Assembly (NCBI GenBank): GCA_949297415.1
Contig: CASFSV010000014.1
Location: forward strand, 7,030-71,029
Direction of reading: 5' to 3'
Length of the DNA: 64,000 bases
Origin: an uncultured Alphaproteobacteria bacterium
GTDB lineage: Bacteria > Pseudomonadota > Alphaproteobacteria > RF32 > CAG-239
Part shown: piece after piece, positions 7,685 to 64,000 of the stretch
How positions within the stretch are numbered: the first letter of the stretch is position 1
How the letters are laid out: each line of letters starts with the position of its first letter
The notes under the pieces: model-generated
Told to the model about the DNA's origin: nothing
The model's database searches: none
What the model saw: the letters and a program-made list of their open reading frames with translations, nothing else
Made by a program: the position numbers and the translations under genes

Positions 7685-9067
7685 TTAAAACGGAAATTTG
7701 TTGTTAAACCCGCCAAAGGAATTTCCTCCGAACGGATTGTTTTTCATAAAACGGGTTGCAAGAGAACTCATGCCTCCAAGCTTACCCATTCTTTTCATCA
7801 TGGTTGACATTTGCTCATAGGATTTAAGCAACTTGTTAACTTCATGAACTTCTACACCGGCTCCGGCTGCTATTCTTTTTTTGCGGGAGGCTTTGATAAT
7901 ATCCGGATTGCGACGCTCGCCTTTGGTCATTGACAAGATAATTGCTTCTTGTCTTTTCATCATCGCATCAGCATTTGCTGCTTCTATTTGTTCTTTATAT
8001 TTGCTTAATCCGGGTAACATTCCCATAATATTGGATACGGAGCCCAATTTCTTCATCTGGCGAATTTGATTGAGCATATCCTCTAAATCAAATTTGCCTT
8101 TCATCATCTTTTTAGCCATAGCTTCGGTTTCTTCTTTATCCAGATTTTCTACGGCTTTTTCTACAAGACTGACGACATCACCTTTATCTAATATTCTTCC
8201 GGCAAGTCTGTCTGCATGAAATTCTTCTATATCTTCTAATTTTTCACCGGTTCCTAAAAACTTCAAAGGAGCTCCTGAAACCATCTTCATTGATAAAGCG
8301 GCTCCGGCACGAGATGAACCATCTATTCTGGTTAATACCAAACCCGTAATACCGACTTTTTCATTAAATTCTTTAGCAACATTGCAAGCTTCTTGTCCGA
8401 TAAGAGAATCGGCAACCAACAATGTTTCGGTCGGGTTAGCCAACTTCTTAACGCTGGCAACTTCATCCATCAATTTTTCATCTATTTGCAGACGACCGGC
8501 CGTATCTAATATCAATACATCATAAATACCTTTTTGACCGGCAGCAATAGCACGTTTTGTTATTTCTAACGGCTTTTCTCCGGCAACGATTGGTAAAACG
8601 TCCACATTGATTTGTTTACCCAACTGAGCAAGCTGTTCTTGTGCTGCCGGACGGTAAACGTCTAAAGATGCCATTAACACGCGTTTATTCTTTTTTAATT
8701 TTAAAGCAATCTTCGCAGAGGTTGTCGTTTTACCGGAGCCTTGCAAACCCACCATCAAAATAACCGCAGGTGGAACGGCTTTGAAATTTAATTCTGTACT
8801 ATCACCACCCAACAAATCTATCAACTCATCATAAACGATTTTTACGAGTTGTTGGTCGGGACGGATAGATTTGATAACTTTTTCGCCAAGAGCTTTTTCT
8901 TTTACTCTGGCCATAAATTCTTTAACAACGCTCAAGGAAACATCTGCTTCTAACAAAGCCAAGCGAATCTCTCTTAACCCCTCTTCAATATCCTTCTCTT
9001 TAAGAACACCGCGAGAGCCTAAACGACTGAATATGTCACTCAACTTTGTTGTTAATGCGTCAAACAT
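7685..9067 (-). CDS. ffh: signal recognition particle protein Ffh
   Basis: NG domain (GLQGSGKTTT, DTAGR, TRIDG) and Met-rich M domain (MKKLGSVSNIMGMLPG). Confidence 0.95.
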   Translation of the reverse strand: MFDALTTKLSDIFSRLGSRGVLKEKDIEEGLREIRLALLEADVSLSVVKEFMARVKEKALGEKVIKSIRPDQQLVKIVYDELIDLLGGDSTELNFKAVPPAVILMVGLQGSGKTTTSAKIALKLKKNKRVLMASLDVYRPAAQEQLAQLGKQINVDVLPIVAGEKPLEITKRAIAAGQKGIYDVLILDTAGRLQIDEKLMDEVASVKKLANPTETLLVADSLIGQEACNVAKEFNEKVGITGLVLTRIDGSSRAGAALSMKMVSGAPLKFLGTGEKLEDIEEFHADRLAGRILDKGDVVSLVEKAVENLDKEETEAMAKKMMKGKFDLEDMLNQIRQMKKLGSVSNIMGMLPGLSKYKEQIEAANADAMMKRQEAIILSMTKGERRNPDIIKASRKKRIAAGAGVEVHEVNKLLKSYEQMSTMMKRMGKLGGMSSLATRFMKNNPFGGNSFGGFNNKFPF

Positions 9068-9332
9068 TTGTTTCCTTTTTACTTTCCTTACTATTAGTAA
9101 AAAAAATTGCGCCAGTGTGCGAACCCTCGCTGACTGACGGCACTCCGTGGAGTGTTATTTTTTACTTAAATCTGTCTTGATACTAGGGATTTTTTCTCAA
9201 GAGTCAAGTCTTTTTTTAGAACTTTTCCTTTTTAAATTGCCGACAACTCTCTTAAAATTTGTACTTGCATATTCCTTTTTATTTGTTATTATGCGCTTAA
9301 TTTTAATGTATTATCCTTTTTTGAGAAAAATT

Positions 9333-25351: not shown

Positions 25352-25509
25352 ATTTTATTTTCCTTATTTTCCGGTTAAACCTCCGCAGAATTTCGGCCCG
25401 AAATATTTCGGACACCGGAGCGTGAAGCTTTGTTCTTTCTTTTAACATTGCCGACGCTGTGTCTGCGTGTGAATTATAAAAAAACAGCACCATTGCTGCT
25501 TTCGCGTGT

Positions 25510-49912: not shown

Positions 49913-51340
49913 CTAAAAAACAAACCATAACGGTTTGAAAAATGATAAAAACAATACCAATAAACAACCTAAATATACCATAGAATGTAAATTTGATATA
50001 TCTGCACCTAAAACGCATGCTGAGGATGCGTTACTCTTATCTTTTAATTTGTATAACTCTTCCAATAGCGCTAACGCTACAATAAATACAGATAACATTA
50101 CCATTATTCCCAGAACTAAATTATAATTAAATATTTCGGATATAATGATAAAATTATTCCAAAACAATGAGGTTATCGGAAGCCCTATTCCTGCCAAGAT
50201 AAATAATGATAAATATTTTGAAGTTCTCGGCATATAACATAATATTCCTCCGGTACCATATATCCCCAATTCCTTTTTCTGGTATTCTATGTGGCTGATT
50301 AAAAATGATAGTACCGTAATTATCACAATATACGAAAATAAGGAATAGCCAATGTTTAATTTAAGTACATCCGTTGGTAAAAATACACTGGTTAAATATA
50401 GCAAGTAATAAACTGTCGTATATGCAAATAATTTATACCTTATATCTTTATGACTCAAACTGACTAAGGCTATAAATAACATCGTAATGATACATACTAT
50501 TTCAAAAATCGGAGCGTGAATTGCTATTGATTCCGGTACGGTATTGGGCCAAAAGCGAATAAAACCATATAATCCAATTAATGGAACTAAATTACCGACT
50601 AAGAATACTAAGGGATTTTTTAAACTTGAGTTGATTGATGATATCCAGTAATGAAATGGCCATATTGGTAATCGCGAAATAAAGGCAAAAAATATACTTA
50701 ACCATACAAAGTATTCTGTTCCACCCTTAAAATTCAGTTTTCCTGCTTCACTTAGCAAGATATTTCTTGATTGAGAATCGCACATCATTAAAATAGATAC
50801 CAGTAATAATAGCGCTCCGATTAAATTGTATAAGCTGAAACGTATCAATACTGTTTTTTTCCTTTGACTTCCGTATGTACTTATTAAAATCATCAGCGGC
50901 GTTCCAGATGCAACAAAAAATATATAAAATGACAGTACATCTGCGGCAATAAAATATCCGTTTAGCAAACTAATAAACAGCAGCTCCGAGGTAATTAACG
51001 TTTTTGAACGTTCCGTATTACGATTTAAACATAATTCACCGATGAGAAATGATAAATTTACACTTAAAATAATTAGTAACGAAAAAATATCAACCCCAAG
51101 GCATATCTCTACATAGGGATAATCTATCCATTTGAAATGTTCAAGTAGTTGTAATCCTTCTTTACTTAAATTACATTGTGCAAAAATATGGAGAATTAAA
51201 CCTATATTCGCTATAAGTGTCAGAATGGATACATTATAGACATTTGATGTTGTGTAATTTTTATCATTTCGTGCCGTTAATGTAAAAACGGAACCTATTA
51301 ACGGTATTAATATCAATCCTAAAAGCTGATATGAATTCAC
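49913..51340 (-). CDS. nuoM: NuoM-like antiporter-type membrane subunit, highly divergent
   Basis: LPIWPFHYW...LIGLYGFIRF parallels NuoM MP.WP.H.WLPDAHVEAP...LLK.GGYGF.RF, but the PDAHVEAP core is replaced. Confidence 0.6.
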   Translation of the reverse strand: MNSYQLLGLILIPLIGSVFTLTARNDKNYTTSNVYNVSILTLIANIGLILHIFAQCNLSKEGLQLLEHFKWIDYPYVEICLGVDIFSLLIILSVNLSFLIGELCLNRNTERSKTLITSELLFISLLNGYFIAADVLSFYIFFVASGTPLMILISTYGSQRKKTVLIRFSLYNLIGALLLLVSILMMCDSQSRNILLSEAGKLNFKGGTEYFVWLSIFFAFISRLPIWPFHYWISSINSSLKNPLVFLVGNLVPLIGLYGFIRFWPNTVPESIAIHAPIFEIVCIITMLFIALVSLSHKDIRYKLFAYTTVYYLLYLTSVFLPTDVLKLNIGYSLFSYIVIITVLSFLISHIEYQKKELGIYGTGGILCYMPRTSKYLSLFILAGIGLPITSLFWNNFIIISEIFNYNLVLGIMVMLSVFIVALALLEELYKLKDKSNASSACVLGADISNLHSMVYLGCLLVLFLSFFKPLWFVF

Positions 51341-53010
51341 GGCAATTCCCTCCTATAAAATGACAGAAGAAAACATATTATTCCGATAACTATAAAGGCG
51401 AAACATGCCATATAACTCTTACGATTAACTTTAAAAAATAAAGATATTCCCATTTTGTGCAGACCTGTCAAACCTGCCGTAATTATTTTTTCTGAAAAAA
51501 CAAAATCCACCATCAGCCATAATGTTCTGCTTAAATACATAAATGGTGTAACTAATGTGTAAAAAAAGAAACTTTTGCTTAAATCTTCTTTTTGAAACCA
51601 TTCTATTTCATATACGGCTCTTATTTTAGTTAGTAGCGGGCACCAACACAAAACTATAAAAAAGAGAATAAACAGAATATTATAAAGTGTATACGCTTGC
51701 ATTTCTATACTTGTATATACCAATAAACTTAGCATCACCAATAAAGATATCGGACGAAGAGGATTGGGAGTTAAATTTTCCAGTTTCCTTGTGTATGGAG
51801 ATTGGTATATATGATTAAGCACTATGCCTATGGCACAAATTAATATTGTTCCTGTTATAAGTATCCAAAATTGTTCTTGTTTTACAGAAATACGATATAT
51901 CAATGTTATAAATATATTGGCAATTAATATAAATTGAACTAATGTGGTTTTTAATATGAAGGAATTTGTTTCTCTTCCATTCAACATTTCACTTACTTTG
52001 GTTTCGTGATTTTGATATAAATACATTTTTAAAAATAGTAAATTGATGAAATAGCCTACACTGTAATAAAATGAATATTGCCAATTCCACTGTAAATCGC
52101 GATGTTCCAACATTAACAGTAAAAGTCCTATAAATCCCATATTCAGATATACCAATTTCTTTTTTAAATTATCTATTATAAGAAAGTTCAAAATACCAAA
52201 TATCATTGTTAACATGCTTATTATCTTTAACAATGGCAATGCTAAATCTGAAACTTCTACCAAGTTATGCAACTTTAGTAAGACAAGTATACCTGTTAAA
52301 GGTGCAAATAACAAATTTACAGTGCTCATACGCTGAAGTCTTGCGGCGCTTAAATCCAGCAAATAGCTCTGAAACATAAAAACTCCCATTTTAATAAATA
52401 CAGCAACCAAAAGCATCAACCCAACAAAATCTTTATGTCGACCTATTTTTTCATATTGTGGCAAATCTTCAAGTGACAGACTTTGCAGCTTTCCACATAC
52501 AAGCGCCAAAACCATAAACAAACATGTATCAGCAAAGAAATTGTATATTACATATCGATGTGACGAATCTACATCTTTTAGTATCAAATATCCGAGAATA
52601 TCTGTTATAAAGACTGCAGTTATCATCTGCACATAATTTTCAGAGCATATTAATAAGCTTGAGGAGGCAAAATTTAATAAAATAAAAGCATTAAAAGCAC
52701 TCTTTTTTTCTTCATATCGAAATATATTGTTATGAAGAATCGTCACAAGGGATAAGAAAAATAAAGGCAATAGTAAACGATGCTCTCCTAATTCCGGGCT
52801 AAAATCAATCGTTATATTTCCAATTTTAGATGTGCTCCATAGAAAAGAGAAACTTTCTTTATTGAGATTGACAGCATTTGTAGCAAATTCCATAAATAAA
52901 GCCGTTGCTGCAAAAAATATAAGCCAAGATATTAACCTATCATACTTCATTCTTTGTTTTATAAGGCCTATAAAGCTCAGAACAATTATAGAGGCTATTA
53001 TTTGTATCAT
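51337..53010 (-). CDS. nuoL: NuoL-like antiporter-type membrane subunit, shortened and divergent
   Basis: Polytopic, 557 aa, 4-nt overlap with the nuoM-like gene. Only faint Proton_antipo_M-like pattern (ITDILGYLIL..., FIKMGVFMFQ). Confidence 0.5.
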   Translation of the reverse strand: MIQIIASIIVLSFIGLIKQRMKYDRLISWLIFFAATALFMEFATNAVNLNKESFSFLWSTSKIGNITIDFSPELGEHRLLLPLFFLSLVTILHNNIFRYEEKKSAFNAFILLNFASSSLLICSENYVQMITAVFITDILGYLILKDVDSSHRYVIYNFFADTCLFMVLALVCGKLQSLSLEDLPQYEKIGRHKDFVGLMLLVAVFIKMGVFMFQSYLLDLSAARLQRMSTVNLLFAPLTGILVLLKLHNLVEVSDLALPLLKIISMLTMIFGILNFLIIDNLKKKLVYLNMGFIGLLLLMLEHRDLQWNWQYSFYYSVGYFINLLFLKMYLYQNHETKVSEMLNGRETNSFILKTTLVQFILIANIFITLIYRISVKQEQFWILITGTILICAIGIVLNHIYQSPYTRKLENLTPNPLRPISLLVMLSLLVYTSIEMQAYTLYNILFILFFIVLCWCPLLTKIRAVYEIEWFQKEDLSKSFFFYTLVTPFMYLSRTLWLMVDFVFSEKIITAGLTGLHKMGISLFFKVNRKSYMACFAFIVIGIICFLLSFYRRELP

Positions 53011-53390: not shown

Positions 53391-53492
53391 TCTTCCCTCT
53401 TCTAATATCTTGTTATTTTGTTGTTTAATTTGTTTTTAGCACATAATAGTTAATAAATAAATAGCTAAATGAAAAAAAAATTAATTTTTTTA

Positions 53493-53521
53493 TTGACTAT
53501 CTAAAAATTATACTTTATATA
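53493..53521 (+). promoter_or_regulatory. sigma-70-like promoter of tRNA-Lys
   Basis: TTGACT, 17 nt, TATATA. The -10 element ends 19 nt before the mature tRNA 5' end. Confidence 0.6.
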
Positions 53522-53540
53522 CCTCTCTCAGTTACATTGT

Positions 53541-53616
53541 GGGCCCGTAGCTCAGTCGGTAGAGCATTTGACTTTTAATCAAAGGGTCATGGGTTCGAAT
53601 CCCGTCGGGCTCACCA
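53541..53616 (+). tRNA. tRNA-Lys (anticodon UUU)
   Basis: gggcccg/cgggctc acceptor (with one G-U) plus A plus CCA. Anticodon stem tttga/tcaaa with loop cTTTTaa. T-loop gggttcgaatccc. Hairpin aaggcttt..aaagcctt plus T-run follows. Confidence 0.93.
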
Positions 53617-53999
53617 GTAAAACAAAGGCTTTGAGAGAAATCTTAAAGCCTTTTACTTTTTGCTAGTAGTGAAATAGTAGTGGATACAAATAGCTTTTCA
53701 CGAATCTTTTCTCGTTCTTTTCTTCGATAACTTTATTTTGCTATTGAAGTTTACCCGAATCTTTTTTAGAAAAGGCTTTATGTGCATTTTTTTATCAAAT
53801 AAAGCCAGCCATACAGGACAACGATATAGGCGTTTTTTTTACAAATCGAAGAAAAATTAAACAAATATTTACGCAAGTCTCAGAGAGAGAATTCCATATC
53901 TCTTTAGCTTTCATTAAGAATCTTTAATCTCCACTTTTGATGAGTATTTTTAAATACTATATAATTATATACTGTGAGTATACTGAAAAATTGAAACAC

Positions 54000-54028
54000 T
54001 TGCATTTTATTTAAAAATTCTTTAGCAT
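54000..54028 (+). promoter_or_regulatory. candidate promoter of the helicase/DUF2290-like operon
   Basis: TTGCAT, 17 nt, TAGCAT, about 37 nt upstream of ATG 54065. Preceded by direct repeat TATACTG..TATACTG (53968-53985) with 11-nt spacing. Confidence 0.35.
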
Positions 54029-54064
54029 GATTGTCTGTTAAGAAATAAAATTAGGTATAGGTTA

Positions 54065-56185
54065 ATGAGGCTCTTAAACAAGATAAACGATATATTCAAA
54101 AGAAATATTTTTGAAGACGGAGAAACTCTAGAAGTTGTTAGAGGTGCTAGTAGAGGCAATCTTCTTCCTATTAGTAATTTGATTGACACCCTTTCTGCAC
54201 TGAAAATATCAGGCACTCTTTATATAGGTTATCCAGTACTTTCCTCCGCAGACAATAATGAGGTTATTGATGCTTTGCTCATTTCTAAAAGTGTTGGATT
54301 ATTAGCTTTTAATTTTCCTAATACATCGCAATCACTTGATGAATTATGTGACGTTCAAGATAGAATAATATACACTTTTGAAGCTAACCTGAAAAAGCAT
54401 GAAGAACTGAGGAATGGAAGAAGCCTGATTATTACCCCTCAAATCGTAACATATGTTGAAGATATTAATAATTTTAATCCCCAAAATAAAGCTTATATTT
54501 TTGCTGATAGCAATTCTTTAGGTAAGACTCTAAAAAAAATAAAAAATGAATTGAGTGACGATCAGTTAAAACGAATCAATTCAGCCATCCAAAAAGTTTC
54601 ATCGCTTAAACCTAAAAACACACGAAAAAATGCTATCACAGATGGCTCTAAGGGCTTTATATTAAAACAAATAGAAAAGGAAATTGCTAATTTAGATAAA
54701 TGGCAAAAACAGGCTTCTATCGAAGTTCCAGATGGTCCCCAAAGAATCAGAGGATTAGCGGGGTCTGGAAAAACTGTAGTTCTTGCATTAAAAGCGGCAT
54801 ATTTACATACTAATTACCCAGAATGGAAAATTGCTGTAACATTTTATACGCGTTCTTTAAAACAACAATTTCAAGAACTAATTGAAAAATTTACTTATGC
54901 TCATTCAGAAAGCAAACCAGATTGGGATAAAATAGAAATTCTACACGCATGGGGATCTTTATCTGAAAAAGGAATATATTCCGAGGCATCTCAGAAAGCA
55001 GGTATCAAACCTCTGAATTTTCAAACAGCAAAAGAAATTAGCCCTAATGACCCCTTTCGCTTTGTTTGTGAGCAACTAAATAATGAAATTAAAGACAAAA
55101 ATATTGAAATGTACGATGCCATTCTAGTTGATGAAGCTCAGGATTTTCCCGATACATTTTTTAAAATACTATATAAAATGGCTAAAGGAGATAAAAAAAT
55201 TGTATGGGCATATGATGAACTTCAAAATTTATCTGGCTCAACAATGCCATCTATTAATAATTTATTTGATGGGAATATTACAGTAGACAACTTCAAAAAT
55301 GAAGTCGGACGGCCTAGAAAAGATATTGTTCTCCCTATATGTTATAGAAATACACCATGGGCAATAACTGTCGCACATGCTTTAGGATTTGGAATTTATC
55401 GTAATGGTGGTTTAGTCCAGTTCTTTGAACAATTTGACCTGTGGAAAGATGTTGGTTATGATGTTGATAAACCAATGGACTTTGGGGTAGATGTATCCTT
55501 AGTTCGAAGCAAAGGTTCTTATCCAGAATACTTTGATAAATATATTACAAAAACAGATGCTGTACAGGTAAATACGTTCGAAACTGTATCTGAACAATAT
55601 ACTAAGCTTGCTCAATCAATCAAAGAAAATATTGAGAAAGATGAATTAACTCCTCAAGATATCATGATCATTCTCCCCGATGCCTATACGGCACAGAAAG
55701 AGTATGTGAGATTATCAAAGATTTTAAGTGAGTATAATATTCCTGCACATCTTGCTGGAGTATCAACAAATAGAGATACTTTTCATATAGATGATTCTGT
55801 TACTGTAACAAGTATCTACCGAGCAAAAGGAAATGAAGCGGCAATGGTATATCTTGTTAATTCTGAATATTGCTATATTGGTTTCAACCTCCCGAGTCTA
55901 AGAAATACATTGTTTACAGCAATAACTCGCTCTAGAGCATGGGTTAGAATATTTGGTGTTGGTTTTAAGATGAAACTACTTGAAGAGGAAATTAATAAAG
56001 TTATAGATAACGATTTCAAATTAATTTTCACCATTCCATCAAAAGAAGTTTTAAGAAATCTTCGAAAAATTAATAGAGATTTATCTGAAGATGACAATTT
56101 TGTTAAAGAAGCGAGTAAACTCATACAAAATGGTGCAACTGAGGATGATTTACATCAAGTTATTCGTGAGTTGTTTGAAAACTGA
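54065..56185 (+). CDS. SF1 (UvrD/AAA_19-like) helicase with degenerate NERD-like N-terminal domain; helicase component of a helicase+DUF2290-type defence pair
   Basis: GLAGSGKTVVLALKAAY (Walker A), ILVDEAQDF (motif II), VWAYDELQNL, ICYRNT, SIYRAKGNEAAMVYLV, TAITRSRAW. N-terminal roughly 200 aa has IDALLISKSVGLLAFNF where NERD nucleases carry D...ExK. Confidence 0.8.
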   Translation: MRLLNKINDIFKRNIFEDGETLEVVRGASRGNLLPISNLIDTLSALKISGTLYIGYPVLSSADNNEVIDALLISKSVGLLAFNFPNTSQSLDELCDVQDRIIYTFEANLKKHEELRNGRSLIITPQIVTYVEDINNFNPQNKAYIFADSNSLGKTLKKIKNELSDDQLKRINSAIQKVSSLKPKNTRKNAITDGSKGFILKQIEKEIANLDKWQKQASIEVPDGPQRIRGLAGSGKTVVLALKAAYLHTNYPEWKIAVTFYTRSLKQQFQELIEKFTYAHSESKPDWDKIEILHAWGSLSEKGIYSEASQKAGIKPLNFQTAKEISPNDPFRFVCEQLNNEIKDKNIEMYDAILVDEAQDFPDTFFKILYKMAKGDKKIVWAYDELQNLSGSTMPSINNLFDGNITVDNFKNEVGRPRKDIVLPICYRNTPWAITVAHALGFGIYRNGGLVQFFEQFDLWKDVGYDVDKPMDFGVDVSLVRSKGSYPEYFDKYITKTDAVQVNTFETVSEQYTKLAQSIKENIEKDELTPQDIMIILPDAYTAQKEYVRLSKILSEYNIPAHLAGVSTNRDTFHIDDSVTVTSIYRAKGNEAAMVYLVNSEYCYIGFNLPSLRNTLFTAITRSRAWVRIFGVGFKMKLLEEEINKVIDNDFKLIFTIPSKEVLRNLRKINRDLSEDDNFVKEASKLIQNGATEDDLHQVIRELFEN

Positions 56186-56865
56186 TGTCACTTGATAAAG
56201 AAATATTGGAAGATATTAACGATACTTGCGTGAAACTTGTTGAGAATGACCTTGCGTATTCTTTTCAAGGGGTTTGTTGTGAAAAACTTTCTGGGGGGAT
56301 AAGACGAATATGTTGGTCTAATCATATATCAGGAACACTTAATACTTCTTCTTATTTTAATAATTTAGAGCAATATAAAAATATATTAAGAAATAATGCT
56401 TATTTCTGCATGCTATACGATGGTTCTATTATCCGCGCATCATACTCTATCGAGAGAAATAAACTAATTGCGCAGAATTTACTTTATTGGCCAGCCCCTT
56501 TTAATCTTAATCTACAAAATATTAATTTTGAATTTGGTGGTCCTTTAGAAATTTTAGAAGACATTATGTCATCTGAAGATTGGCATCAGCGTATGATTAT
56601 GAGATCTCCGATAAGAATTGATTTTGACCAAAAAAATTGTTCAGATGAACATCCTTTAATTCACTTGCACATACAGGATAAAGATTGCAGAATCGCTGTT
56701 AACAAACCTCTTTGCTTTAATTCTTTTGTACGTTTTATTTTTGAAAATCATTATAATCAGATATATAAAAAAGAAAAATTATTTAGACATCTTTCACATA
56801 AAAACTTAAATTTTGATATGGGTAAGATGGAGCATTCTTTATCTTTATTATTTAAATATAAATAG
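56185..56865 (+). CDS. DUF2290-like protein, translationally coupled partner of the helicase
   Basis: ATG overlaps the helicase stop (TGATG at 56183-56187). 226 aa, soluble. IRIDFDQKNCSDEHPLIHLHIQ segment. Size and pairing fit the helicase+DUF2290 family as I recall it. Not confirmed by HMM. Confidence 0.55.
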   Translation: MSLDKEILEDINDTCVKLVENDLAYSFQGVCCEKLSGGIRRICWSNHISGTLNTSSYFNNLEQYKNILRNNAYFCMLYDGSIIRASYSIERNKLIAQNLLYWPAPFNLNLQNINFEFGGPLEILEDIMSSEDWHQRMIMRSPIRIDFDQKNCSDEHPLIHLHIQDKDCRIAVNKPLCFNSFVRFIFENHYNQIYKKEKLFRHLSHKNLNFDMGKMEHSLSLLFKYK

Positions 56866-56879
56866 ATATATATATATAT
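56866..56879. repeat. (AT)7 dinucleotide microsatellite
   Basis: atatatatatatat directly after the TAG stop of the DUF2290-like gene, about 100 nt upstream of the next gene. Confidence 0.9.
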
Positions 56880-56980
56880 TTCTTACTAGCATATCCGCTT
56901 ACAAAAAATGCTTTATACTTGCATTTAAATCAAATTTCTATATTCAATAAATATTATGGCCATGCATGGAGACAAAAGAA

Positions 56981-58657
56981 ATGAGTGTATCTTTTAAGGT
57001 TAGAAAATATAAGTGTTTCGGTGACGAATATCAGGGTTTTGATATCATTAAAAAATTTAATATAGTTATAGGAAAAAATAATAGCGGAAAATCAAAATTA
57101 TTGGAAGCATTAGAATATTTTATCAAAAAAGGAATTCAATCCTCATATATTCCAGATATTCAAATTGGAAGTGTCCTTACAGAAGAACCTTTAATTAATA
57201 TTTTTAAAAATCGCACTTATGGAGGTGTTTTAGGAGAAGCACTTGGTAACAGTTCCTATAGCCACTGGGATTTAGTTGGAAAGTATTTAGTTGGTCATTT
57301 CTATACATTATCATTATATGGTGATAATAAAAAAATAGATACTGATTTAAGCTATTTTAAAGCACATTTAGAGGCTGAACCTATTATATCATCAATGTTA
57401 CAAAGAATACAAGTTACCAACCCTTTTGAAGGATATCGCTATTTGCATTTACAAGCAGAACGAGATATAAAAAAAGAAAAAATTAATTTTGATAAAAAAT
57501 TATCTTTTGACTTTATAGATAAAGATGCCAGCCATATTACAGACTTAATTGCGCGTATGCTTAATGATGAAAACGGTAATCAAAATCACTGGCAAGAATA
57601 TATCGAAAATAATTTTTTGGATTTAATTAATCAAATTGTAGCTCCGGAAATAAAGTTCTCTCGTATTTATACTAAAACTAATTCTGTTGGCACATATGAA
57701 ATATATCTTGAAGAAAAGGAAAAAGGAGGAATTAAGCTTTCTGACTGTGGTAGTGGTCTTAAAACTGTTATTGCAACCCTGACACTTTTACATATTATTC
57801 CTTTTTTAACCCAAGAAAAAAAGTTTGTATATGCGTTGGAAGAACTAGAAAACAATATGCATCCCAGCTTAGAACGAAAACTTTTATTTCATATAAAAGA
57901 TTATATAATGGCAAACAAAGATATGCTATTATTCTTAACAACTCACTCTAATGTTGCAATAGATTTATTTGGTAATGATAAAAATTCACAAATACTTCGC
58001 GTGACAAATGATGGACACTATTCCACTGTTCAAAAAGTAGATACTTGGAATGATAAGAAAAATTTACTAGATGAACTAGGGATAAAAGCAAGCGATATTT
58101 TACAATCCAATTGTATCATATGGGTAGAAGGCCCCTCAGACAGAATATATATTAACAAATGGATACAGCTTTTTAATACTGGCTCTCCTTTACAAGAAGG
58201 ATTAGATTATCAATGTGTCTTTTACGGAGGTGCATTGCTGGCGCATTATTCAGCCGATGATAATGGCTTCATCAATCTTCTTAAAGTTAATAAAAATTCT
58301 TATGTTGTTATGGATAGTGATAAAAGGTCAAGTGACGGAACTCTAAAACAAAGAGTTCAACAAATTGCAGAAGCTATGCCTGATAATCATTGGATAACCT
58401 CTGGCAAAGAAATAGAAAACTATTTGCCTAAGGCTGCTCTTTCCGCATATTTCGGAGAAGAAACAGAGATTGACCAATACGCTTTATTTCCCGACATATA
58501 CAAAGAAAGAAAAGGTGTTGATACATTTGACAAAGTTTCCTTTGCTTCAGAAATTATTCAAAAGGACGAATATAACATAAGTAACCTTGAGAAATGCTTA
58601 GATTTAAAAGAGCAGATGAAAAAATTAATAGATTTTATCAGAGCTGCAAATTTATAA
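56981..58657 (+). CDS. OLD-family-like ABC ATPase fused to a Toprim/DUF4435-like nuclease domain (P2 Old / GajA / fused PARIS class)
   Basis: ATG 56981 with ggaga RBS. GKNNSGKSKLLEAL (Walker A), LSDCGSGLK (signature), FVYALEELENNMHP (Walker B/D-loop), LLFLTTHS (H-loop). C-terminal IIWVEGPSDRIYI (Toprim Glu) and VVMDSDK (DxD). Confidence 0.8.
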   Translation: MSVSFKVRKYKCFGDEYQGFDIIKKFNIVIGKNNSGKSKLLEALEYFIKKGIQSSYIPDIQIGSVLTEEPLINIFKNRTYGGVLGEALGNSSYSHWDLVGKYLVGHFYTLSLYGDNKKIDTDLSYFKAHLEAEPIISSMLQRIQVTNPFEGYRYLHLQAERDIKKEKINFDKKLSFDFIDKDASHITDLIARMLNDENGNQNHWQEYIENNFLDLINQIVAPEIKFSRIYTKTNSVGTYEIYLEEKEKGGIKLSDCGSGLKTVIATLTLLHIIPFLTQEKKFVYALEELENNMHPSLERKLLFHIKDYIMANKDMLLFLTTHSNVAIDLFGNDKNSQILRVTNDGHYSTVQKVDTWNDKKNLLDELGIKASDILQSNCIIWVEGPSDRIYINKWIQLFNTGSPLQEGLDYQCVFYGGALLAHYSADDNGFINLLKVNKNSYVVMDSDKRSSDGTLKQRVQQIAEAMPDNHWITSGKEIENYLPKAALSAYFGEETEIDQYALFPDIYKERKGVDTFDKVSFASEIIQKDEYNISNLEKCLDLKEQMKKLIDFIRAANL

Positions 58658-58664
58658 TTCTGCT

Positions 58665-61600
58665 TTAGTTATGTGCATATATCTCGTCAAGCTTTTGTTC
58701 TAGATTTCCGGCTTGAACTGCCGGCAACGTATCAAATTGTCTTAAATTATGCTTTTCTATCTTAATTTCGTCACTGAAGCCTAAGATATAGGCGATGGCT
58801 ATGCGATATATAATTTCTGTCGGAGCCAAACCATAAACCTGATTGGCAAAAATATGTTGCAACCGTTCTTTATCATTAGGGAATGCTTGTTTCATCTTCT
58901 CGTTTCTATATAATCTTTTAACAATTTCGGTAATATAAAGACCGGATTTCATATACAAGTCGATAAAGGTTTTATTAGGATCATCAAAGCATTCCGGATT
59001 TTCTGCCAACAAGCTATCGACCATTTCTACAACTACTTTCTTGGGGGTGTATATTTGGTTGGTCTTTTGAGGCGGAATGTAATCGAAAATGTCTTCTTTG
59101 CTTGCTTCATCAAAGTAATTTCCTAATTTTCGTTTCAGATTAAGAAACTCTTTAACCGAATCATTAAAGACTATTGGATCAAATAAATGTCCGTCAAAAT
59201 GCTTTGTTTCTCCAGTTTCAGCATCAACAAACTCTCCACCATCTCTTAAAAATCTAAATTCATCCAGAGTAATGCTGGTTACTTCTTTAAATACCTCATC
59301 AGGGATAATTTTATCAAAATTTTCCAAACACGTTTCTTCATTTCCATAAGCCATTAAAAATGATGGAATTGTTCTTGAAAAACCTCTTAAGTGGTCTCTG
59401 ATAGAGTTTTCTATTTCATTCTTTTGTTTTTGCTTTTTATCTGTTTCTACAACTTTAACAATCGTTTCGCCGGCTTCTTTAACAACGTCTTCCACAACAG
59501 ACTGCATTTTTTCAACAAATTCTTGTGTGTTTTGTTGTTTTTGTTGGTCAAATTTTTGATTTATGGCTTCTATCATTTCCGGCTTGTTATATTTTTGCGC
59601 TTGCTCTAATTCTTTTTGTCTTTCAAGTTCTGTCTTTTTTTGCTCAATTTGATAATCCCCAAAAGATTTCACAACGGTAATATCAGAACTGGCATTAAGT
59701 TTCCTTTCTAGCGCAGTCATTGTTGACTTTGATAAATCTGTTCCGTAATTATCTTTGGCTACTTTAACTAATTCTGAGGTTACAGCTGTATGGAATTCAT
59801 TTTTCATCCGTTCCAAAAGTTCGTCTTTATCATCCTTATGTGTTTCTTGAATTTGTTTGATTGTATCTTGCAGATTTTGGGTAATACCATAAATTTTTTC
59901 ACCAAAAACATTATCCACGCCAATTTCTATGGCTTGTTGCGGTAATTCTACTTCTCCTTCATCATTGATTGATAAATCTTCTTTTGTTTGTGGTGTAACG
60001 GGTATAGGCTCTTTTACTGCCTCAAATTGTTTAATAATATCTACAACTTCCTGCGGGGCACTAAAAATATTGCTAATATTTTGAAATAAGAAATTACTCA
60101 TAAAACCACGTCTTACAACTTCCAAAGCGTGAATTTTTCGTGGAATGGACAATACTTTTTCAGCATCGAGGGCAATCATTTCGCCTTCATCATCTTCACC
60201 GTAAACAGGAAAGAAGTTCAGAAGTTCGCGAATGTGTTTCTTGCGAGTATCACTATCTCCACCACCGCGAGATGTATCGGCGCTTAAATCGTTGGCAAAT
60301 TGCTCAAAAATATCCAATGTTCGAGCTGGATCGAAGTCAAATACATAAGCATTCTCTTTTCGGTATAATTCGTTTCCAACTTTGAATAAACACGGATTTT
60401 GGGCTCTAAAGGCCGCTTGCATATAAAGTGCGGGACTTTTGACATTGCTGAGCATAAAAACAGCTGTCCATTCCGGAACTGTAATACCGGTTGTAAGTTG
60501 CCCAACCGAAAGAGTTATTGTTTTATCATGCTCTTTAATTGCTTTTCTTACCTTATCCAGAGCTTTTTTATTTTCGCTGTCATCATCAATTTTGCCATTG
60601 CCTGCGGCTAAAACAATTTCATAATCCTTGAAAACATCGTGTTTTTGGAGTTTTTTAGCCAAAGCCTTTGCACTATCAACTCGATTAAGCAGCCAAAATG
60701 TATGTTTTAACTCGTTTTGCAATTCCGGAGTTGAAAAAGGAAACTTCTCTTGACTGACCAAGGCATCTAAAAATTTATCTACATCAGCTTCATATTTAAA
60801 ACTTCCATTGGCATTAGTAATAAAAAATTCGTTCAAATCAAAAGCATATTCTTCTGTTTCGCCATCATTATCAAAATCTGCTCCTTTTTGAAGCTTATCT
60901 CGGATAATTTCAGACATCTGATAGGTATAAAGATTAAGCTGTGGCAAATTTTCGTAAGGGTTTTCTTCGTCTTGAGAACAATCCCATTCTCGTTTTGCTT
61001 TTTGTTCATCAGCGTAGGTCCAGTTGAAAATAGCTTTTTCTTCAAACTTATTATTGGCCAAAGCCTTAAATGGAGTTCCGGACAGATGCAAAGTATATTT
61101 TCTTTTGATATGGTCAAAAGCAATATCGGTTTTGTAGGTATCAACACCTTCATGAGCTTCATCTATTATCAAAATATCCCATTCTAATTCAGCTACTTCT
61201 TTGAGTTTGTCATATTGGCCGCCAAAATAAATAGAACCTTTCATATCTTGCAGTGACACAAACTCTATACAGCCTTTATGATCTGGCTGGCTGATATGTT
61301 TGGTATATTGCTCTCGCGATAGGACATAAGGTTTTCCGATTAAACCATCTACTTGACTGACAAAGTAATATCCTGATTCCGTTCCCAAAAACTTGACATA
61401 ATCTTCGTACCAAGAATTAGCAATGGCTGGTCGGTTGGTTACAATTAACACTTTGGGAACGTTAAGGCTTTTGCATAACGCATAGGCTGACAATGTTTTA
61501 CCAAAACGAGGTTTGGCGTTCCATAAAAATTCTGGCTCATCATCTTGGCGAGATTTAAAATATAAAGAAGTTTGTTCTATAGCCTCATTTTGCTCTTTGC

Positions 61601-61985
61601 GAAGCTTATAAGGAATAACGCCTAATGTTTCTAATATTCCTCTATGTTGTTTAAAATAGCAAAATTCATCATAAGAATCTTGTGGTAAAATATGGAACCA
61701 TTCGGAATCCGGTAGTTTTTTAACATCTTTCTTTTGTAAATAGGCATGAAAATCTTTATCTTTAAAAGAATCTCCGCTTCCATCTTGATAAATAGCCAAA
61801 TCTTGCCATTCCAGCTTAAATTTGATATCTGCTGTTTGGGTTTGTTGTTTGATACGAGCTTCTACATTGTCTTGTTCTGTATAGCCAATCTTTGTCCAAC
61901 CATTATGGCGAGCAATTTCCGGAGTTGTGTAAGCATAGCATTTGGGCTCAATTTTTTTAGCTGTTTTGATGTTAGGAGATTTCAT
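58665..61985 (-). CDS. T5orf172/GIY-YIG-like domain + SF2 (ResIII/SNF2-like) helicase + coiled-coil + degenerate methyltransferase-like C-terminal lobe
   Basis: N-terminus CYAYTT...GWTKIGYTEQ...SEWF (T5orf172-type). NAKPRFGKTLSAYAL (motif I), LIIDEAHEG (DEAH), LHLSGTPF (motif III), GQLTTGITVPEW...MQAAFRAQN (motifs V/VI). C-terminus IYTPKKVVVEMVDSL...FIDLYMKSGLY...VYGLAPTE. Confidence 0.8.
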   Translation of the reverse strand: MKSPNIKTAKKIEPKCYAYTTPEIARHNGWTKIGYTEQDNVEARIKQQTQTADIKFKLEWQDLAIYQDGSGDSFKDKDFHAYLQKKDVKKLPDSEWFHILPQDSYDEFCYFKQHRGILETLGVIPYKLRKEQNEAIEQTSLYFKSRQDDEPEFLWNAKPRFGKTLSAYALCKSLNVPKVLIVTNRPAIANSWYEDYVKFLGTESGYYFVSQVDGLIGKPYVLSREQYTKHISQPDHKGCIEFVSLQDMKGSIYFGGQYDKLKEVAELEWDILIIDEAHEGVDTYKTDIAFDHIKRKYTLHLSGTPFKALANNKFEEKAIFNWTYADEQKAKREWDCSQDEENPYENLPQLNLYTYQMSEIIRDKLQKGADFDNDGETEEYAFDLNEFFITNANGSFKYEADVDKFLDALVSQEKFPFSTPELQNELKHTFWLLNRVDSAKALAKKLQKHDVFKDYEIVLAAGNGKIDDDSENKKALDKVRKAIKEHDKTITLSVGQLTTGITVPEWTAVFMLSNVKSPALYMQAAFRAQNPCLFKVGNELYRKENAYVFDFDPARTLDIFEQFANDLSADTSRGGGDSDTRKKHIRELLNFFPVYGEDDEGEMIALDAEKVLSIPRKIHALEVVRRGFMSNFLFQNISNIFSAPQEVVDIIKQFEAVKEPIPVTPQTKEDLSINDEGEVELPQQAIEIGVDNVFGEKIYGITQNLQDTIKQIQETHKDDKDELLERMKNEFHTAVTSELVKVAKDNYGTDLSKSTMTALERKLNASSDITVVKSFGDYQIEQKKTELERQKELEQAQKYNKPEMIEAINQKFDQQKQQNTQEFVEKMQSVVEDVVKEAGETIVKVVETDKKQKQKNEIENSIRDHLRGFSRTIPSFLMAYGNEETCLENFDKIIPDEVFKEVTSITLDEFRFLRDGGEFVDAETGETKHFDGHLFDPIVFNDSVKEFLNLKRKLGNYFDEASKEDIFDYIPPQKTNQIYTPKKVVVEMVDSLLAENPECFDDPNKTFIDLYMKSGLYITEIVKRLYRNEKMKQAFPNDKERLQHIFANQVYGLAPTEIIYRIAIAYILGFSDEIKIEKHNLRQFDTLPAVQAGNLEQKLDEIYAHN

Positions 61986-61991
61986 AGCTTC

Positions 61992-64000
61992 TTACTCCAT
62001 AGGCTTTACGTTTGTTTCAATAAACTGTATTTCATCTTCAGATAATCCATATTTTTTATACAGTAGTGCATCTATTTCCGGAATAGACTTACTCCAGTCG
62101 ATATCTGAATTTTCTGTAAAATCTTGGAGAGGAACATATGCCCAAGTTGACACAGGATTGTGTTGTGTTTTTTTCAAAATACCAAGTAATACACGTGCTA
62201 ATTTTGTTTTAATATATTTTAAGAGATTTTCTGCTTCTGTTTGATTATTAAAATTACCAATACTTATAAATGTAGGTGTAGCTGACATAAGAGGTGTACC
62301 AATAAGAGGTGTACTCAAAACTTCACCTATAGCACCACATCCGTTAGATTCTGGAACAAATACTTTATAGTTATCAATATTATTACAATTTGGATACCTA
62401 GCAGACATATATTTTTGTTTAACAAATCTATATACCCTTTTTCCATTATATAAGCCCAATATTTTATAACATTCTTCATTGTCTGGTTTATTTTCATATA
62501 TTCCATAATTAGCCAAAACATCTAATGTTGATGATTTTAGTTCGTATTCTTCATTTGGACTTAATTCTTTTACATTTGGATGTTTTTTTTGAACAGACTG
62601 TAACCTTTTGCTAATGGTTTCAGGATAATCTTTCAAATATTCATCATTAAACTTTAAATCAGATCGCCCTCCAAACATAATAGATGGCAGATTATGTTCA
62701 GAGGATTTTACAAATTTAGCAGAAATACTACGGAGAGTATTATCTGGTATAAATTCACCTATAGCACCATAATCTTTTTGATTATCCCTATATATAATAG
62801 CAATCCCTCCTTTTATATCTGTTGTTGGAAATATTTTAGAAGAATCTGCTTCAAAACGTTCTACTTTTATATGGGAATCTTGTAACATTTTTAGATTCCA
62901 CTCTTTTGAAGTTAATCCATTATTGAATAAAAATCTAGCTGGAGATATTAAAATAGACTTATCTGCAATCATTTCGGCTACATCATAGAATAATGGGTAT
63001 ATAGGTTCTTGTCTATTATATGTTTCATTTGATGCTTGATAAGGAGGGTTACCAATAACATAATCAAACTTCATTTTTTTATATCCTTTCAGATCGCGGA
63101 AATAAAAGACAAGCTTATTTCTCCAGTCTTTCACGCGGCAAATAATGGGAAAACTAAGGGTGGGTAAATCGTTAAACAGCTCTAATTGTGAGGCTTCAGA
63201 TGCAACGAACGGTGTACATTCTTTCAAACCGTCCATTTGCCAAATATTCCAAGCAATAACATTAGCTATCTGTTTGAGGTGTGCTATTGCCGGAAATTGT
63301 TGAAATTTATATTTGTAGTTATCAATAAAGGTCCAAAGCATATTTTCTCTGGCTAAAAGAAGATTATCGCCTTGATATTCATATCCATAGGTGCTTTCAT
63401 AAGCTCTTTTAGCCCAAACAAACCAATCGGCTTCATTATCCGTGTTTTCATTAACAATACGTAATTTTCTATCTAACAAGCCAATACGTTTTATAATCGG
63501 CAAAACTTCTCCGGTTGTTGTGTCATATCTTGAAACCAAAAATGGCGCTTCGCCACAAGTGATTTCCAAGCGTTTGGAGTCAACATATCTTTGCCATTCG
63601 GCTTTTTTGCGTTTGTTCGTTTCTTTAAAAGAAATCTTATGTAAGGTTGGCACCCAAGTTTTATCGATCACTTGGTTAAAAACGTTTGGTTCTCCAAACC
63701 ATTCTTCATCACACAGATTATTCATTTCTGCGCAAATCCAACTTGGTGTAAAAACTTCTGCCGATTTGCGGGTTCGGTTAAGCTGATCTTCTTTGCTTTT
63801 GGCTATACGTGGTTGAATTATTTTTGTATTTGAGCCAGTTATTAATTCCGGAAAAATTTCTTTTTCTGCCGTATAAGCCTCGCCGTATTTAGCATATTCA
63901 TCACAAGCCCAGCGAATATAGCGACCGGTTGTTTTGTCTTGTAATAAGATTTTTAATAAATATGGGCTTAACTCCCGAATATTTTGCTCTAAAATGTCAA
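61992..64000 (-). CDS. N6-adenine DNA methyltransferase (Eco57I/TaqI-like gamma class), N-terminus beyond the window
   Basis: FDYVIGNPPYQ (motif IV), LEITCGEAPFL (motif I variant). My own translation upstream of the track start stays open to position 64000 (...RKSAEVFTPSWICAEMNNL...). Stop is 6 nt before the helicase gene start. Confidence 0.8.
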   Translation of the reverse strand, partial: DILEQNIRELSPYLLKILLQDKTTGRYIRWACDEYAKYGEAYTAEKEIFPELITGSNTKIIQPRIAKSKEDQLNRTRKSAEVFTPSWICAEMNNLCDEEWFGEPNVFNQVIDKTWVPTLHKISFKETNKRKKAEWQRYVDSKRLEITCGEAPFLVSRYDTTTGEVLPIIKRIGLLDRKLRIVNENTDNEADWFVWAKRAYESTYGYEYQGDNLLLARENMLWTFIDNYKYKFQQFPAIAHLKQIANVIAWNIWQMDGLKECTPFVASEASQLELFNDLPTLSFPIICRVKDWRNKLVFYFRDLKGYKKMKFDYVIGNPPYQASNETYNRQEPIYPLFYDVAEMIADKSILISPARFLFNNGLTSKEWNLKMLQDSHIKVERFEADSSKIFPTTDIKGGIAIIYRDNQKDYGAIGEFIPDNTLRSISAKFVKSSEHNLPSIMFGGRSDLKFNDEYLKDYPETISKRLQSVQKKHPNVKELSPNEEYELKSSTLDVLANYGIYENKPDNEECYKILGLYNGKRVYRFVKQKYMSARYPNCNNIDNYKVFVPESNGCGAIGEVLSTPLIGTPLMSATPTFISIGNFNNQTEAENLLKYIKTKLARVLLGILKKTQHNPVSTWAYVPLQDFTENSDIDWSKSIPEIDALLYKKYGLSEDEIQFIETNVKPME

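Follow-up and report, generated by a model that had tools for sequence, protein, structure and literature searches.

The question raised by this locus is what the two overlapping genes at 54065 to 56865 of a 64,000-nt stretch of DNA (contig CASFSV010000014.1; the whole stretch is called the window below) encode, and which of their two products would act against foreign DNA. A preliminary description of the stretch, made from the letters alone, had taken the two genes for a translationally coupled pair of a helicase and a DUF2290-like protein, and our analysis identifies them as a copy of Helicase+DUF2290, an already known defence system. The genes and their junction are the following:

54065..56185, plus strand: superfamily 1 (SF1) UvrD-like helicase of 706 aa with an ATG start, the 'Helicase' component of Helicase+DUF2290 (PADLOC, Pfam, AlphaFold2 and Foldseek)
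56185..56865, plus strand: DUF2290 protein of 226 aa with an ATG start (PF10053, PADLOC and AlphaFold2)
56183..56187, plus strand: TGATG junction, base 56185 being common to the helicase stop and the DUF2290 start (sequence)

The stop codon TGA of the helicase occupies 56183-56185 and the ATG of the DUF2290 gene 56185-56187, in the context aacTGATGtca, so that the shared base noted beforehand is indeed there. The motifs that had been read from the 706-aa open reading frame (ORF) as those of an SF1 helicase (GLAGSGKT, VDEAQDF, CYRNT, YRAKGNEA and TAITRSR), as well as the HPLIHLH segment of the 226-aa one, are all present in the translations. A search of the 226-aa protein against PF10053, which had been proposed as a check, rendered a match with E = 2.2e-40 and 138.7 bits, the gathering score being 25, and the same protein is matched by the PADLOC DUF2290 models PDLC02998 (2.8e-37, 126 bits) and PDLC02999 (6.1e-26, 89 bits). 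The helicase is matched by the PADLOC 'Helicase' model PDLC03002 with E = 7e-215 and 713.4 bits, its residues 23-679 corresponding to positions 3-666 of the 707 of the model. Its Pfam matches are UvrD_C_2 (6.6e-10), UvrD-helicase (2.5e-5) and AAA_19, the first two of them above cut-offs, and its sole NCBIfam match, to the STM2767 helicase family, is sub-threshold (131.9 bits for a cut-off of 550). Since the PF10053 match stands so far above its cut-off and the PDLC03002 match reaches 713 bits, the identity of the pair lies far beyond chance. With a helicase that fits the profile, a PF10053 partner and a same-strand adjacency that is conserved in relatives, the gene pair is almost certainly a Helicase+DUF2290 system, as had been proposed. 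It is an intact, selectively maintained copy of an anti-phage/anti-plasmid module that is already known, and the copy itself is ordinary.

What is known of the module comes from other copies. An ATP-dependent helicase and a DUF2290 protein that specifically inhibit T7 in E. coli were described by Rousset et al. in 2022, from a hotspot of P4-like satellites (PMC9122126), and this is the P2/P4 hotspot study to which the preliminary description had referred. The copy of PAO1, PA1372/PA1371, was assigned to the system by both DefenseFinder and PADLOC (PMC11637435). In cells with plasmid pNUK73, the fitness cost and the SOS induction disappear and rep is expressed less once PA1372 carries a loss-of-function mutation. 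Nonsense mutants of this gene are viable, and it was noted to occur in each case together with PA1371, on low-GC mobile DNA; these plasmid-cost results predate the recognition of the locus as a defence system by years (PMC4410645). Deletion of the PAO1 copy has been described to have phage-specific effects (2026 preprint). The openly searchable literature mentioning DUF2290 (subscription-only literature lay outside the search) gives no mechanism for Helicase+DUF2290, in agreement with the earlier remark that the system is uncharacterised.

The co-occurrence of the two genes in other genomes was followed from both sides. A DUF2290-anchored scan of one genome per GTDB species rendered 34 loci, with DUF2290 at 30-44% identity; two of them are cut by a contig end, and in all of the 32 testable ones a helicase homologue lies directly upstream on the same strand, near full length and 42-49% identical to the window helicase. 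The helicase-anchored set comprised 10 IMG/VR and 80 metagenome loci, and was searched with a hidden Markov model (HMM) built from the DUF2290 alignment. DUF2290 was found directly downstream with this HMM in 80 loci and by PF10053 in two more, the divergent viral contigs L046 and L049, whose ORFs of 240 aa and 256 aa at the partner position pass PF10053 at 38 and 48 bits, respectively. This makes 82 of 82 testable loci, the remaining eight ending at or just past the helicase and standing outside the count. Altogether, the helicase and DUF2290 genes are adjacent in 114 of 114 testable loci, and the co-occurrence proposed as a check thus holds in every testable relative. The distance from helicase stop to DUF2290 start, for which the DUF2290 start codons were picked by a heuristic, is -41 to +11 nt in 105 of 109 loci, with an overlap in 77 of them, and the identical one-base overlap is present in relatives that are 76% identical to the window helicase. 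Helicase and DUF2290 are an obligate, tightly juxtaposed pair.

These 76%-identical relatives lie on human-gut metagenome contigs and have neighbours different from those in the window, namely a P63C protein and an EcoO109I restriction-modification pair, between valS/ompA and rsmB/leuS. In the comparison of the window with one of them (L035), nucleotide similarity is limited to 54092-56776, inside the two genes. Because DNA similarity to such a relative is confined to the two genes, the pair moves as a two-gene cassette. It is found on plasmids of Actinomycetota, Bacillota, Cyanobacteriota and Gamma-, Beta- and Alphaproteobacteria, including an E. coli IncI-gamma/K1 plasmid to whose copy that of the window is ca. 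40% identical, and copies next to addiction modules occur on plasmids. The helicase is also present on 10 IMG/VR contigs, and none was found in INPHARED phage records at E up to 1e-20. The DUF2290 family comprises at least 889 clusters at 50% identity (E up to 1e-3), from many phyla, plasmids and viral contigs. In the chromosome of E. coli TC_EC10 (L144, 8402-11812) the pair lies in an integrated element with trbJ/trbL conjugation genes, right after a small serine recombinase. Of the 5426 complete E. coli genomes, only 3 were seen to carry this lineage of the cassette, at the sensitivity that a nucleotide search allows.

Purifying selection acts on both genes. In the comparison with L035, dN/dS is ca. 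0.08 for the helicase and ca. 0.12 for DUF2290, with dS saturated, and the ratios of synonymous to non-synonymous codon changes against a 95% relative are 33:12 and 18:10, respectively. A 95%-identical metagenome copy (L114, 1480-3166), which matches 54049-54094 and 55336-56993 of the window, bears an in-frame deletion of ca. 1.24 kb in the helicase gene. The deletion takes out the NERD-like domain, the Walker A motif and motif II and leaves DUF2290 intact, so that in L114 the helicase has been knocked out naturally.

Since stop and start codons overlap and the two genes are closely packed throughout the family, the stoichiometry of the two proteins is fixed, as could be expected of a toxin-antitoxin or abortive-infection module in which a toxic partner is neutralised until infection upsets the balance, in the manner of PsyrTA-type helicase toxin systems. 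The addiction modules that adjoin plasmid copies go in the same direction, as do the fitness cost and the SOS response that the PAO1 system imposes when a plasmid is present (PMC4410645). The fact that a lone gene was found in none of the 114 testable loci was counted as neutral. On the other hand, DUF2290 is not a free toxin, since the L114 variant retains it without most of the helicase and PA1372 nonsense mutants are viable, and Pfam, NCBIfam and PADLOC gave no match to a known toxin-antitoxin family. We consider a module of this type improbable.

The helicase can be divided into two parts:

54677..55960, plus strand: helicase motor core, ca. residues 205-632, from Walker A GLAGSGKT to motif VI TAITRSR (Pfam and PADLOC ranges, PcrA match, invariant columns)
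54128..54454, plus strand: NERD-derived N-terminal domain without ExK, ca. residues 22-130 (hhalign, AlphaFold2)

Its AlphaFold2 model (pLDDT 85.1, pTM 0.82) rendered Foldseek matches to SLFN11/14, Dna2, PcrA, UvrD, Rep, Upf1 and RecD with E values down to 7e-17, the Foldseek probability being 1.00 for PcrA, UvrD, Rep, Dna2, Upf1 and SLFN11. The only sequence relatives with solved structures are PcrA chains, over residues 204-275. The protein has the Walker A motif, the DEAQD sequence of motif II, motifs IV-VI and the RecA-like two-domain core of the UvrD/Rep/PcrA-like SF1 helicases, and keeps all the invariant columns of an alignment of 118 sequences, including K236 and D356/E357. To judge from its sequence, the helicase is a complete SF1 UvrD-like motor.

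Ahead of the motor, the N-terminal domain has the predicted element order beta-alpha-beta-beta-beta-alpha-beta (AlphaFold2). The earlier proposal to check the helicase against AAA_19, UvrD_C_2 and NERD was borne out for the first two families; NERD went unseen by Pfam, yet a degenerate NERD-derived domain is present. Searches of the N-terminal 205 residues of ten family members against Pfam rendered nothing, with E up to 10 on fragments, and Pfam NERD (PF08378) matched neither the window helicase nor 14 other partnered helicases. The closest outgroup of the helicase is a stand-alone plasmid clade, 27-35% identical over the motor, whose members are annotated as 'nuclease-related domain-containing DEAD/DEAH box helicase'. 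Six of these stand-alone helicases were inspected (from Halapricum, Natribaculum, Gloeocapsopsis, two Deinococcus and Leptolyngbya), and none of the six has a DUF2290 gene downstream. Pfam NERD is found at residues 14-117 in three of them and the canonical motif '...PD...G[LI]xx[IV]E[VC]K' in five, and the Halapricum protein aligns with the window helicase in BLASTP from residue 49 on. An hhalign comparison of the partnered N-terminal domains with the stand-alone NERD domains gave a probability of 85.4% with E = 5.8e-6. In this alignment, the E and K of the NERD 'IEVK' fall on N83 and P85 of the window protein. An acidic residue at 83 and K85 are together present in none of the 118 partnered helicases, which have I, H, N or S at position 83 and P, E, V or A at 85, whereas position 69 (D69 in the window) is D or E in 116 of the 118, and Q98, D99 and R119 are invariant or nearly so. 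The window helicase, therefore, cannot be classed as a NERD protein in the ordinary sense, having neither a PF08378 profile match nor D...(D/E)xK, and its homology to NERD is seen only at the profile-profile level. Because the N-terminal domains are homologous at that level and yet none of the 118 keeps ExK, the DUF2290-partnered helicases are, as their alignments tell, descendants of NERD (PD-(D/E)xK-type) nuclease-helicases, in which the ExK dyad has been lost and the domain is still constrained.

The DUF2290 protein was modelled by AlphaFold2 from a 120-sequence alignment with high confidence (pLDDT 90.1, pTM 0.87) as an alpha/beta protein with ca. ten strands. Over 147 diverse representatives of the family, Y64, D79, P103, P105, R144, D146, H156, H160, R169, F181 and Y190 are conserved in at least 93%, and D79, R144, H156, H160 and R169 in at least 98%. 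D148 and H97 are conserved in 81-83%, and H162 (H or T), C168 and C177 are variable. The window protein keeps all these conserved residues except H97, and the core is recognisable even in the most divergent partners, those of L046 and L049 (D, PxP, RxD/E, HPxxHxH, R and YP). The DUF2290 protein is thus predicted to be a compact alpha/beta protein without a recognisable relative, bearing a near-invariant polar set that consists of Y64, D79, R144, D146, D148, H156, H160 and R169. A zinc site formed by H156, H160, H162, C168 and C177 was considered and ruled out, as T replaces H162 in 31% of the family and S replaces C177 in about half of it. A HIT- or GalT-like HxHxQ motif was likewise found to be unsupported, with H162 and Q164 variable and no fold match. 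A rare form of DUF2290 (P0037; L142, 5001-5861) has an XRE-type helix-turn-helix (HTH) domain fused at its C-terminus and is still encoded directly downstream of a 705-aa helicase.

It is possible to combine these features in the following way. Helicase and DUF2290 would be made in a fixed ratio by coupled translation and would form a complex, in which the helicase, driven by ATP, would be loaded onto or travel along the DNA structures typical of foreign replication, for example ends, gaps or forks in T7-like phages or in small plasmids. Binding of DNA or of the partner would be the task of the dead NERD domain, and DUF2290 would supply the effector chemistry once given by the ancestral NERD nuclease, most likely a metal- or histidine-dependent cleavage of nucleic acid that would be set free or brought into place once the helicase is engaged with its substrate. 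Such a division of labour would resemble those of Hachiman (HamB/HamA) and Gabija (GajB/GajA). As a whole, a Helicase+DUF2290 defence module with the helicase as DNA sensor and motor and DUF2290 as effector is the best explanation that we can offer, and we give it about an even chance. The part of it that makes DUF2290 the effector, with a putative enzymatic activity, is held tentatively, somewhat below that. More tentative still is the full proposal that DUF2290 is an effector enzyme, of a fold without a solved or predicted viral relative and with a site formed by D79, D146, H156 and H160 plus R144 and R169, which took over killing from an ancestral single-protein NERD nuclease-helicase and left the NERD domain dead.

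Several observations speak for DUF2290 as the effector. The NERD ExK is absent only in the helicases that have a DUF2290 partner; D79, R144, H156, H160 and R169 are near-invariant and provide a candidate catalytic or ligand site; and the relatives act on DNA-linked targets, as seen in T7 inhibition and in the conflict with pNUK73, the rare DUF2290 fusion described above carrying, in addition, an XRE-type HTH. Other observations weigh against this role. Foldseek searches with the DUF2290 model found no neighbour, the best E being 0.37 in PDB and 0.077 in BFVD, with TM at most 0.29; a DUF2290 profile gave no match among PDB sequences at E up to 10, and no recurrent weak match to a second Pfam family beyond PF10053 appeared across 120 members. 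The possibility that DUF2290 is itself a divergent NERD/PD-(D/E)xK domain was rejected, the hhalign probability against NERD alignments being 0.1-0.2% and Foldseek giving no nuclease match. The window protein has Q at position 97, where H is found in 83% of the family and Q in 9%. The conserved set of Arg, His, Asp and Tyr residues would be just as suitable for a sensor pocket that binds phosphate or nucleotides. Within the same loci, DUF2290 has diverged further than the helicase (30-44% versus 42-49% identity), as specificity subunits typically do rather than enzymes. D63, D69 and the invariant Q98-D99 are kept in the NERD-derived domain, where a residual nuclease activity is conceivable. 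To our knowledge, no phage of this host has been described. Finally, a homologue on a lactococcal plasmid gave no protection against the lactococcal phages tested (PMC11381338).

Several of these points fit the main rival explanation, that the helicase itself is the effector, by stripping or stalling foreign replication, unwinding its intermediates or burning (d)NTPs like GajB, with DUF2290 as a regulatory or specificity subunit, a sensor or a brake. DUF2290 evolves faster than the helicase and has no enzyme-like fold match in PDB or BFVD, and the retention of DUF2290 in L114 despite the in-frame deletion in the helicase gene indicates that DUF2290 alone is tolerated. Moreover, the reported mutations at the PAO1 locus that compensate pNUK73 are all in PA1372 and none in PA1371, in a small sample of 10 compensated clones over three genes (PMC4208098). 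With too small a sample, the lack of PA1371 mutations was not taken to bear on what DUF2290 does (PMC4208098). However, a simple adaptor would not usually need two Asp, two His and two Arg residues to be so strictly conserved, and that it is the partnered clade which has lost the NERD ExK suggests a function handed over to the partner. A helicase effector appears to us somewhat less likely than DUF2290 as the effector, and it is the main contender beside that reading.

The surroundings of the cassette bear on what kind of locus it occupies, and are as follows:

53541..53616: tRNA-Lys(UUU) gene
53624-53653: terminator-like hairpin after the tRNA-Lys gene
53937..53965, plus strand: candidate sigma-70-type promoter TTGATG-17-TATAAT, ca. 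100 nt upstream of the helicase ATG (consensus scan, 10/12 matches)
56966..58657, plus strand: 563-aa AAA_15/AAA_21 ATPase with a faint OLD-type TOPRIM match (Pfam, PADLOC)
58665-61985, minus strand: 1106-aa protein with a T5orf172/MUG113 (GIY-YIG-like) N-terminus and a ResIII/Helicase_C core (Pfam)
61992 to past 64000, minus strand: Eco57I-type N6-adenine methyltransferase with an NPPY motif (Pfam)

Promoter-like sites near 53937..53965 are no commoner than in shuffled sequence, and the candidate promoter is weakly supported. No Rfam match to a structured RNA was found in the 450-nt leader and the surroundings of the cassette besides the tRNA. The PADLOC matches of the 563-aa ATPase, to AriA, GajA, AbiL and PtuA, are weak (ca. 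1e-12 to 1e-15), and the protein fits no named system well; it looks like a candidate single-gene defence protein of the OLD family. The ORF of the methyltransferase runs off the end of the window. Its length in identical contigs is 727 aa, and an internal ATG is the start of the 577-aa ORF listed for the window. The methyltransferase gene is followed 7 nt on by that of the 1106-aa nuclease-helicase, and this unusual pair has merely a weak PADLOC match, to type IIG. On an identical contig (L131, 54-689), a serine recombinase of 211 aa (PF00239) adjoins the methyltransferase, just past window position 64000. The presence of this recombinase on one side and of the tRNA-Lys gene on the other suggests a tRNA-Lys-adjacent mobile defence island of ca. 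11 kb or more, of which the cassette is one tenant. An att-type direct repeat of the 3' end of the tRNA-Lys gene was not found within 53400-64000, and the far border of the island lies beyond the window.

The ATPase gene is on the same strand as the pair and 100 nt away from it, and a UvrD-like helicase next to an OLD-type ATPase recalls GajB and GajA, the more so as the ATPase has weak matches to GajA, AriA and AbiL. The cassette could on these grounds be part of a three-gene Gabija-like system, but the comparative data effectively refute this: an ATPase homologue is present in none of 34 related loci, the 76%-identical relatives have other neighbours and DNA homology to them ends within the two genes, the similarity of L114 stops 28 nt into the ATPase gene, and the GajB models match the helicase weakly and partially. 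It is also hardly credible that the pair consists of a housekeeping DNA-repair helicase and an accessory factor with no part in defence. UvrD-like helicases are classical repair enzymes, but this family is distributed patchily among phyla and resides on plasmids, viral contigs and islands; here it is flanked by a tRNA gene, the OLD-like ATPase, and the methyltransferase and nuclease-helicase, with a recombinase just past them, and anti-T7 activity has been shown experimentally for the family (PMC9122126).

The GC content is ca. 0.28-0.41 across the window and ca. 0.28-0.33 across the two genes, which bears out the AT-rich background that had been noted for this copy. Two Rfam leader motifs scored above gathering thresholds, ffh at 9102-9153 and rpsB at 25356-25471, both on the minus strand, and the ffh motif lies just upstream of ffh (7685..9067). 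The ffh RNA motif is widespread among Alphaproteobacteria according to the paper describing it (PMC2704228). Its position upstream of ffh, and the fact that the nearest named relative of the DUF2290 protein comes from an Alphaproteobacteria metagenome-assembled genome, make the alphaproteobacterial background put forward earlier plausible, and the host is probably a low-GC alphaproteobacterium from a gut-type metagenome. It had also been described as a distant host for this system, which we do not find: an alphaproteobacterial host is not unusual, as an Agrobacterium plasmid carries the system too. Elsewhere in the window, a 557-aa membrane ORF (51337-53010, minus strand) directly upstream of nuoM- and nuoN-like genes is extremely divergent. 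It has no Pfam match and only 21.6 bits to an MrpD model, as would suit a subunit that evolves fast or is degenerate.

For the window itself, the result is mainly one of annotation: it contains a genuine Helicase+DUF2290 cassette, housed within a small mobile defence island. The wider interest lies in the mechanism of a widespread system, for which the pattern of NERD loss and six near-invariant DUF2290 residues (D79, R144, D146, H156, H160 and R169) offer experimental handles. The new comparative points are the NERD-derived domain lacking ExK, a confident DUF2290 model without neighbours and the near-invariant polar set. A structure of DUF2290 would be informative, as none that is solved, and no predicted viral one, resembles it. 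If DUF2290 did take over the function of NERD, the family would record a transition from one-gene to two-gene defence and a new class of nucleic-acid-targeting enzymes. Moreover, PA1372/PA1371 tie the system to the fitness costs of plasmids, so that its mechanism is relevant to the spread of plasmids and resistance genes besides phage defence.

Among the known systems, Hachiman (HamA nuclease and HamB helicase) is analogous to the pair in combining a helicase with a separate small effector, and this is an analogy, not membership: DUF2290 matches solely DUF2290 models and not HamA/Cap4-type nucleases, and HamB is a superfamily 2 helicase whereas that of the window belongs to SF1. Gabija (GajA OLD nuclease and GajB UvrD-like helicase) follows an analogous two-gene logic, but the best GajB match to the helicase is a partial one at 6.5e-9, and DUF2290 is not an OLD/TOPRIM protein, so that a conserved GajA-type partner is missing from the pair. 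The stand-alone NERD-SF1 helicases (PADLOC candidate C3a187, NERD+UvrD) are closer, the C3a187 model matching the window helicase at 3.8e-22; theirs is a D...ExK site, in five of six, with no DUF2290, while the window helicase has the partner and no ExK. PA1372/PA1371 is the same system, likewise paired and likewise on a low-GC island, the likeness being one of assignment and description rather than of alignment; the plasmid-cost phenotype and the phage-specific effects belong to the PAO1 pair, and the window copy is known from its genes alone. Compared with the founding system of Rousset et al., the window copy comes from a different host lineage and lies in a tRNA-Lys-adjacent island rather than in a P4 satellite, and its likeness rests on profile matches, not on alignment to the validated Klebsiella sequence. 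With Rst_HelicaseDUF2290 of DefenseFinder, called helicase-DUF2290 in PADLOC, it agrees in both components, in their order and in their adjacency on a single strand.

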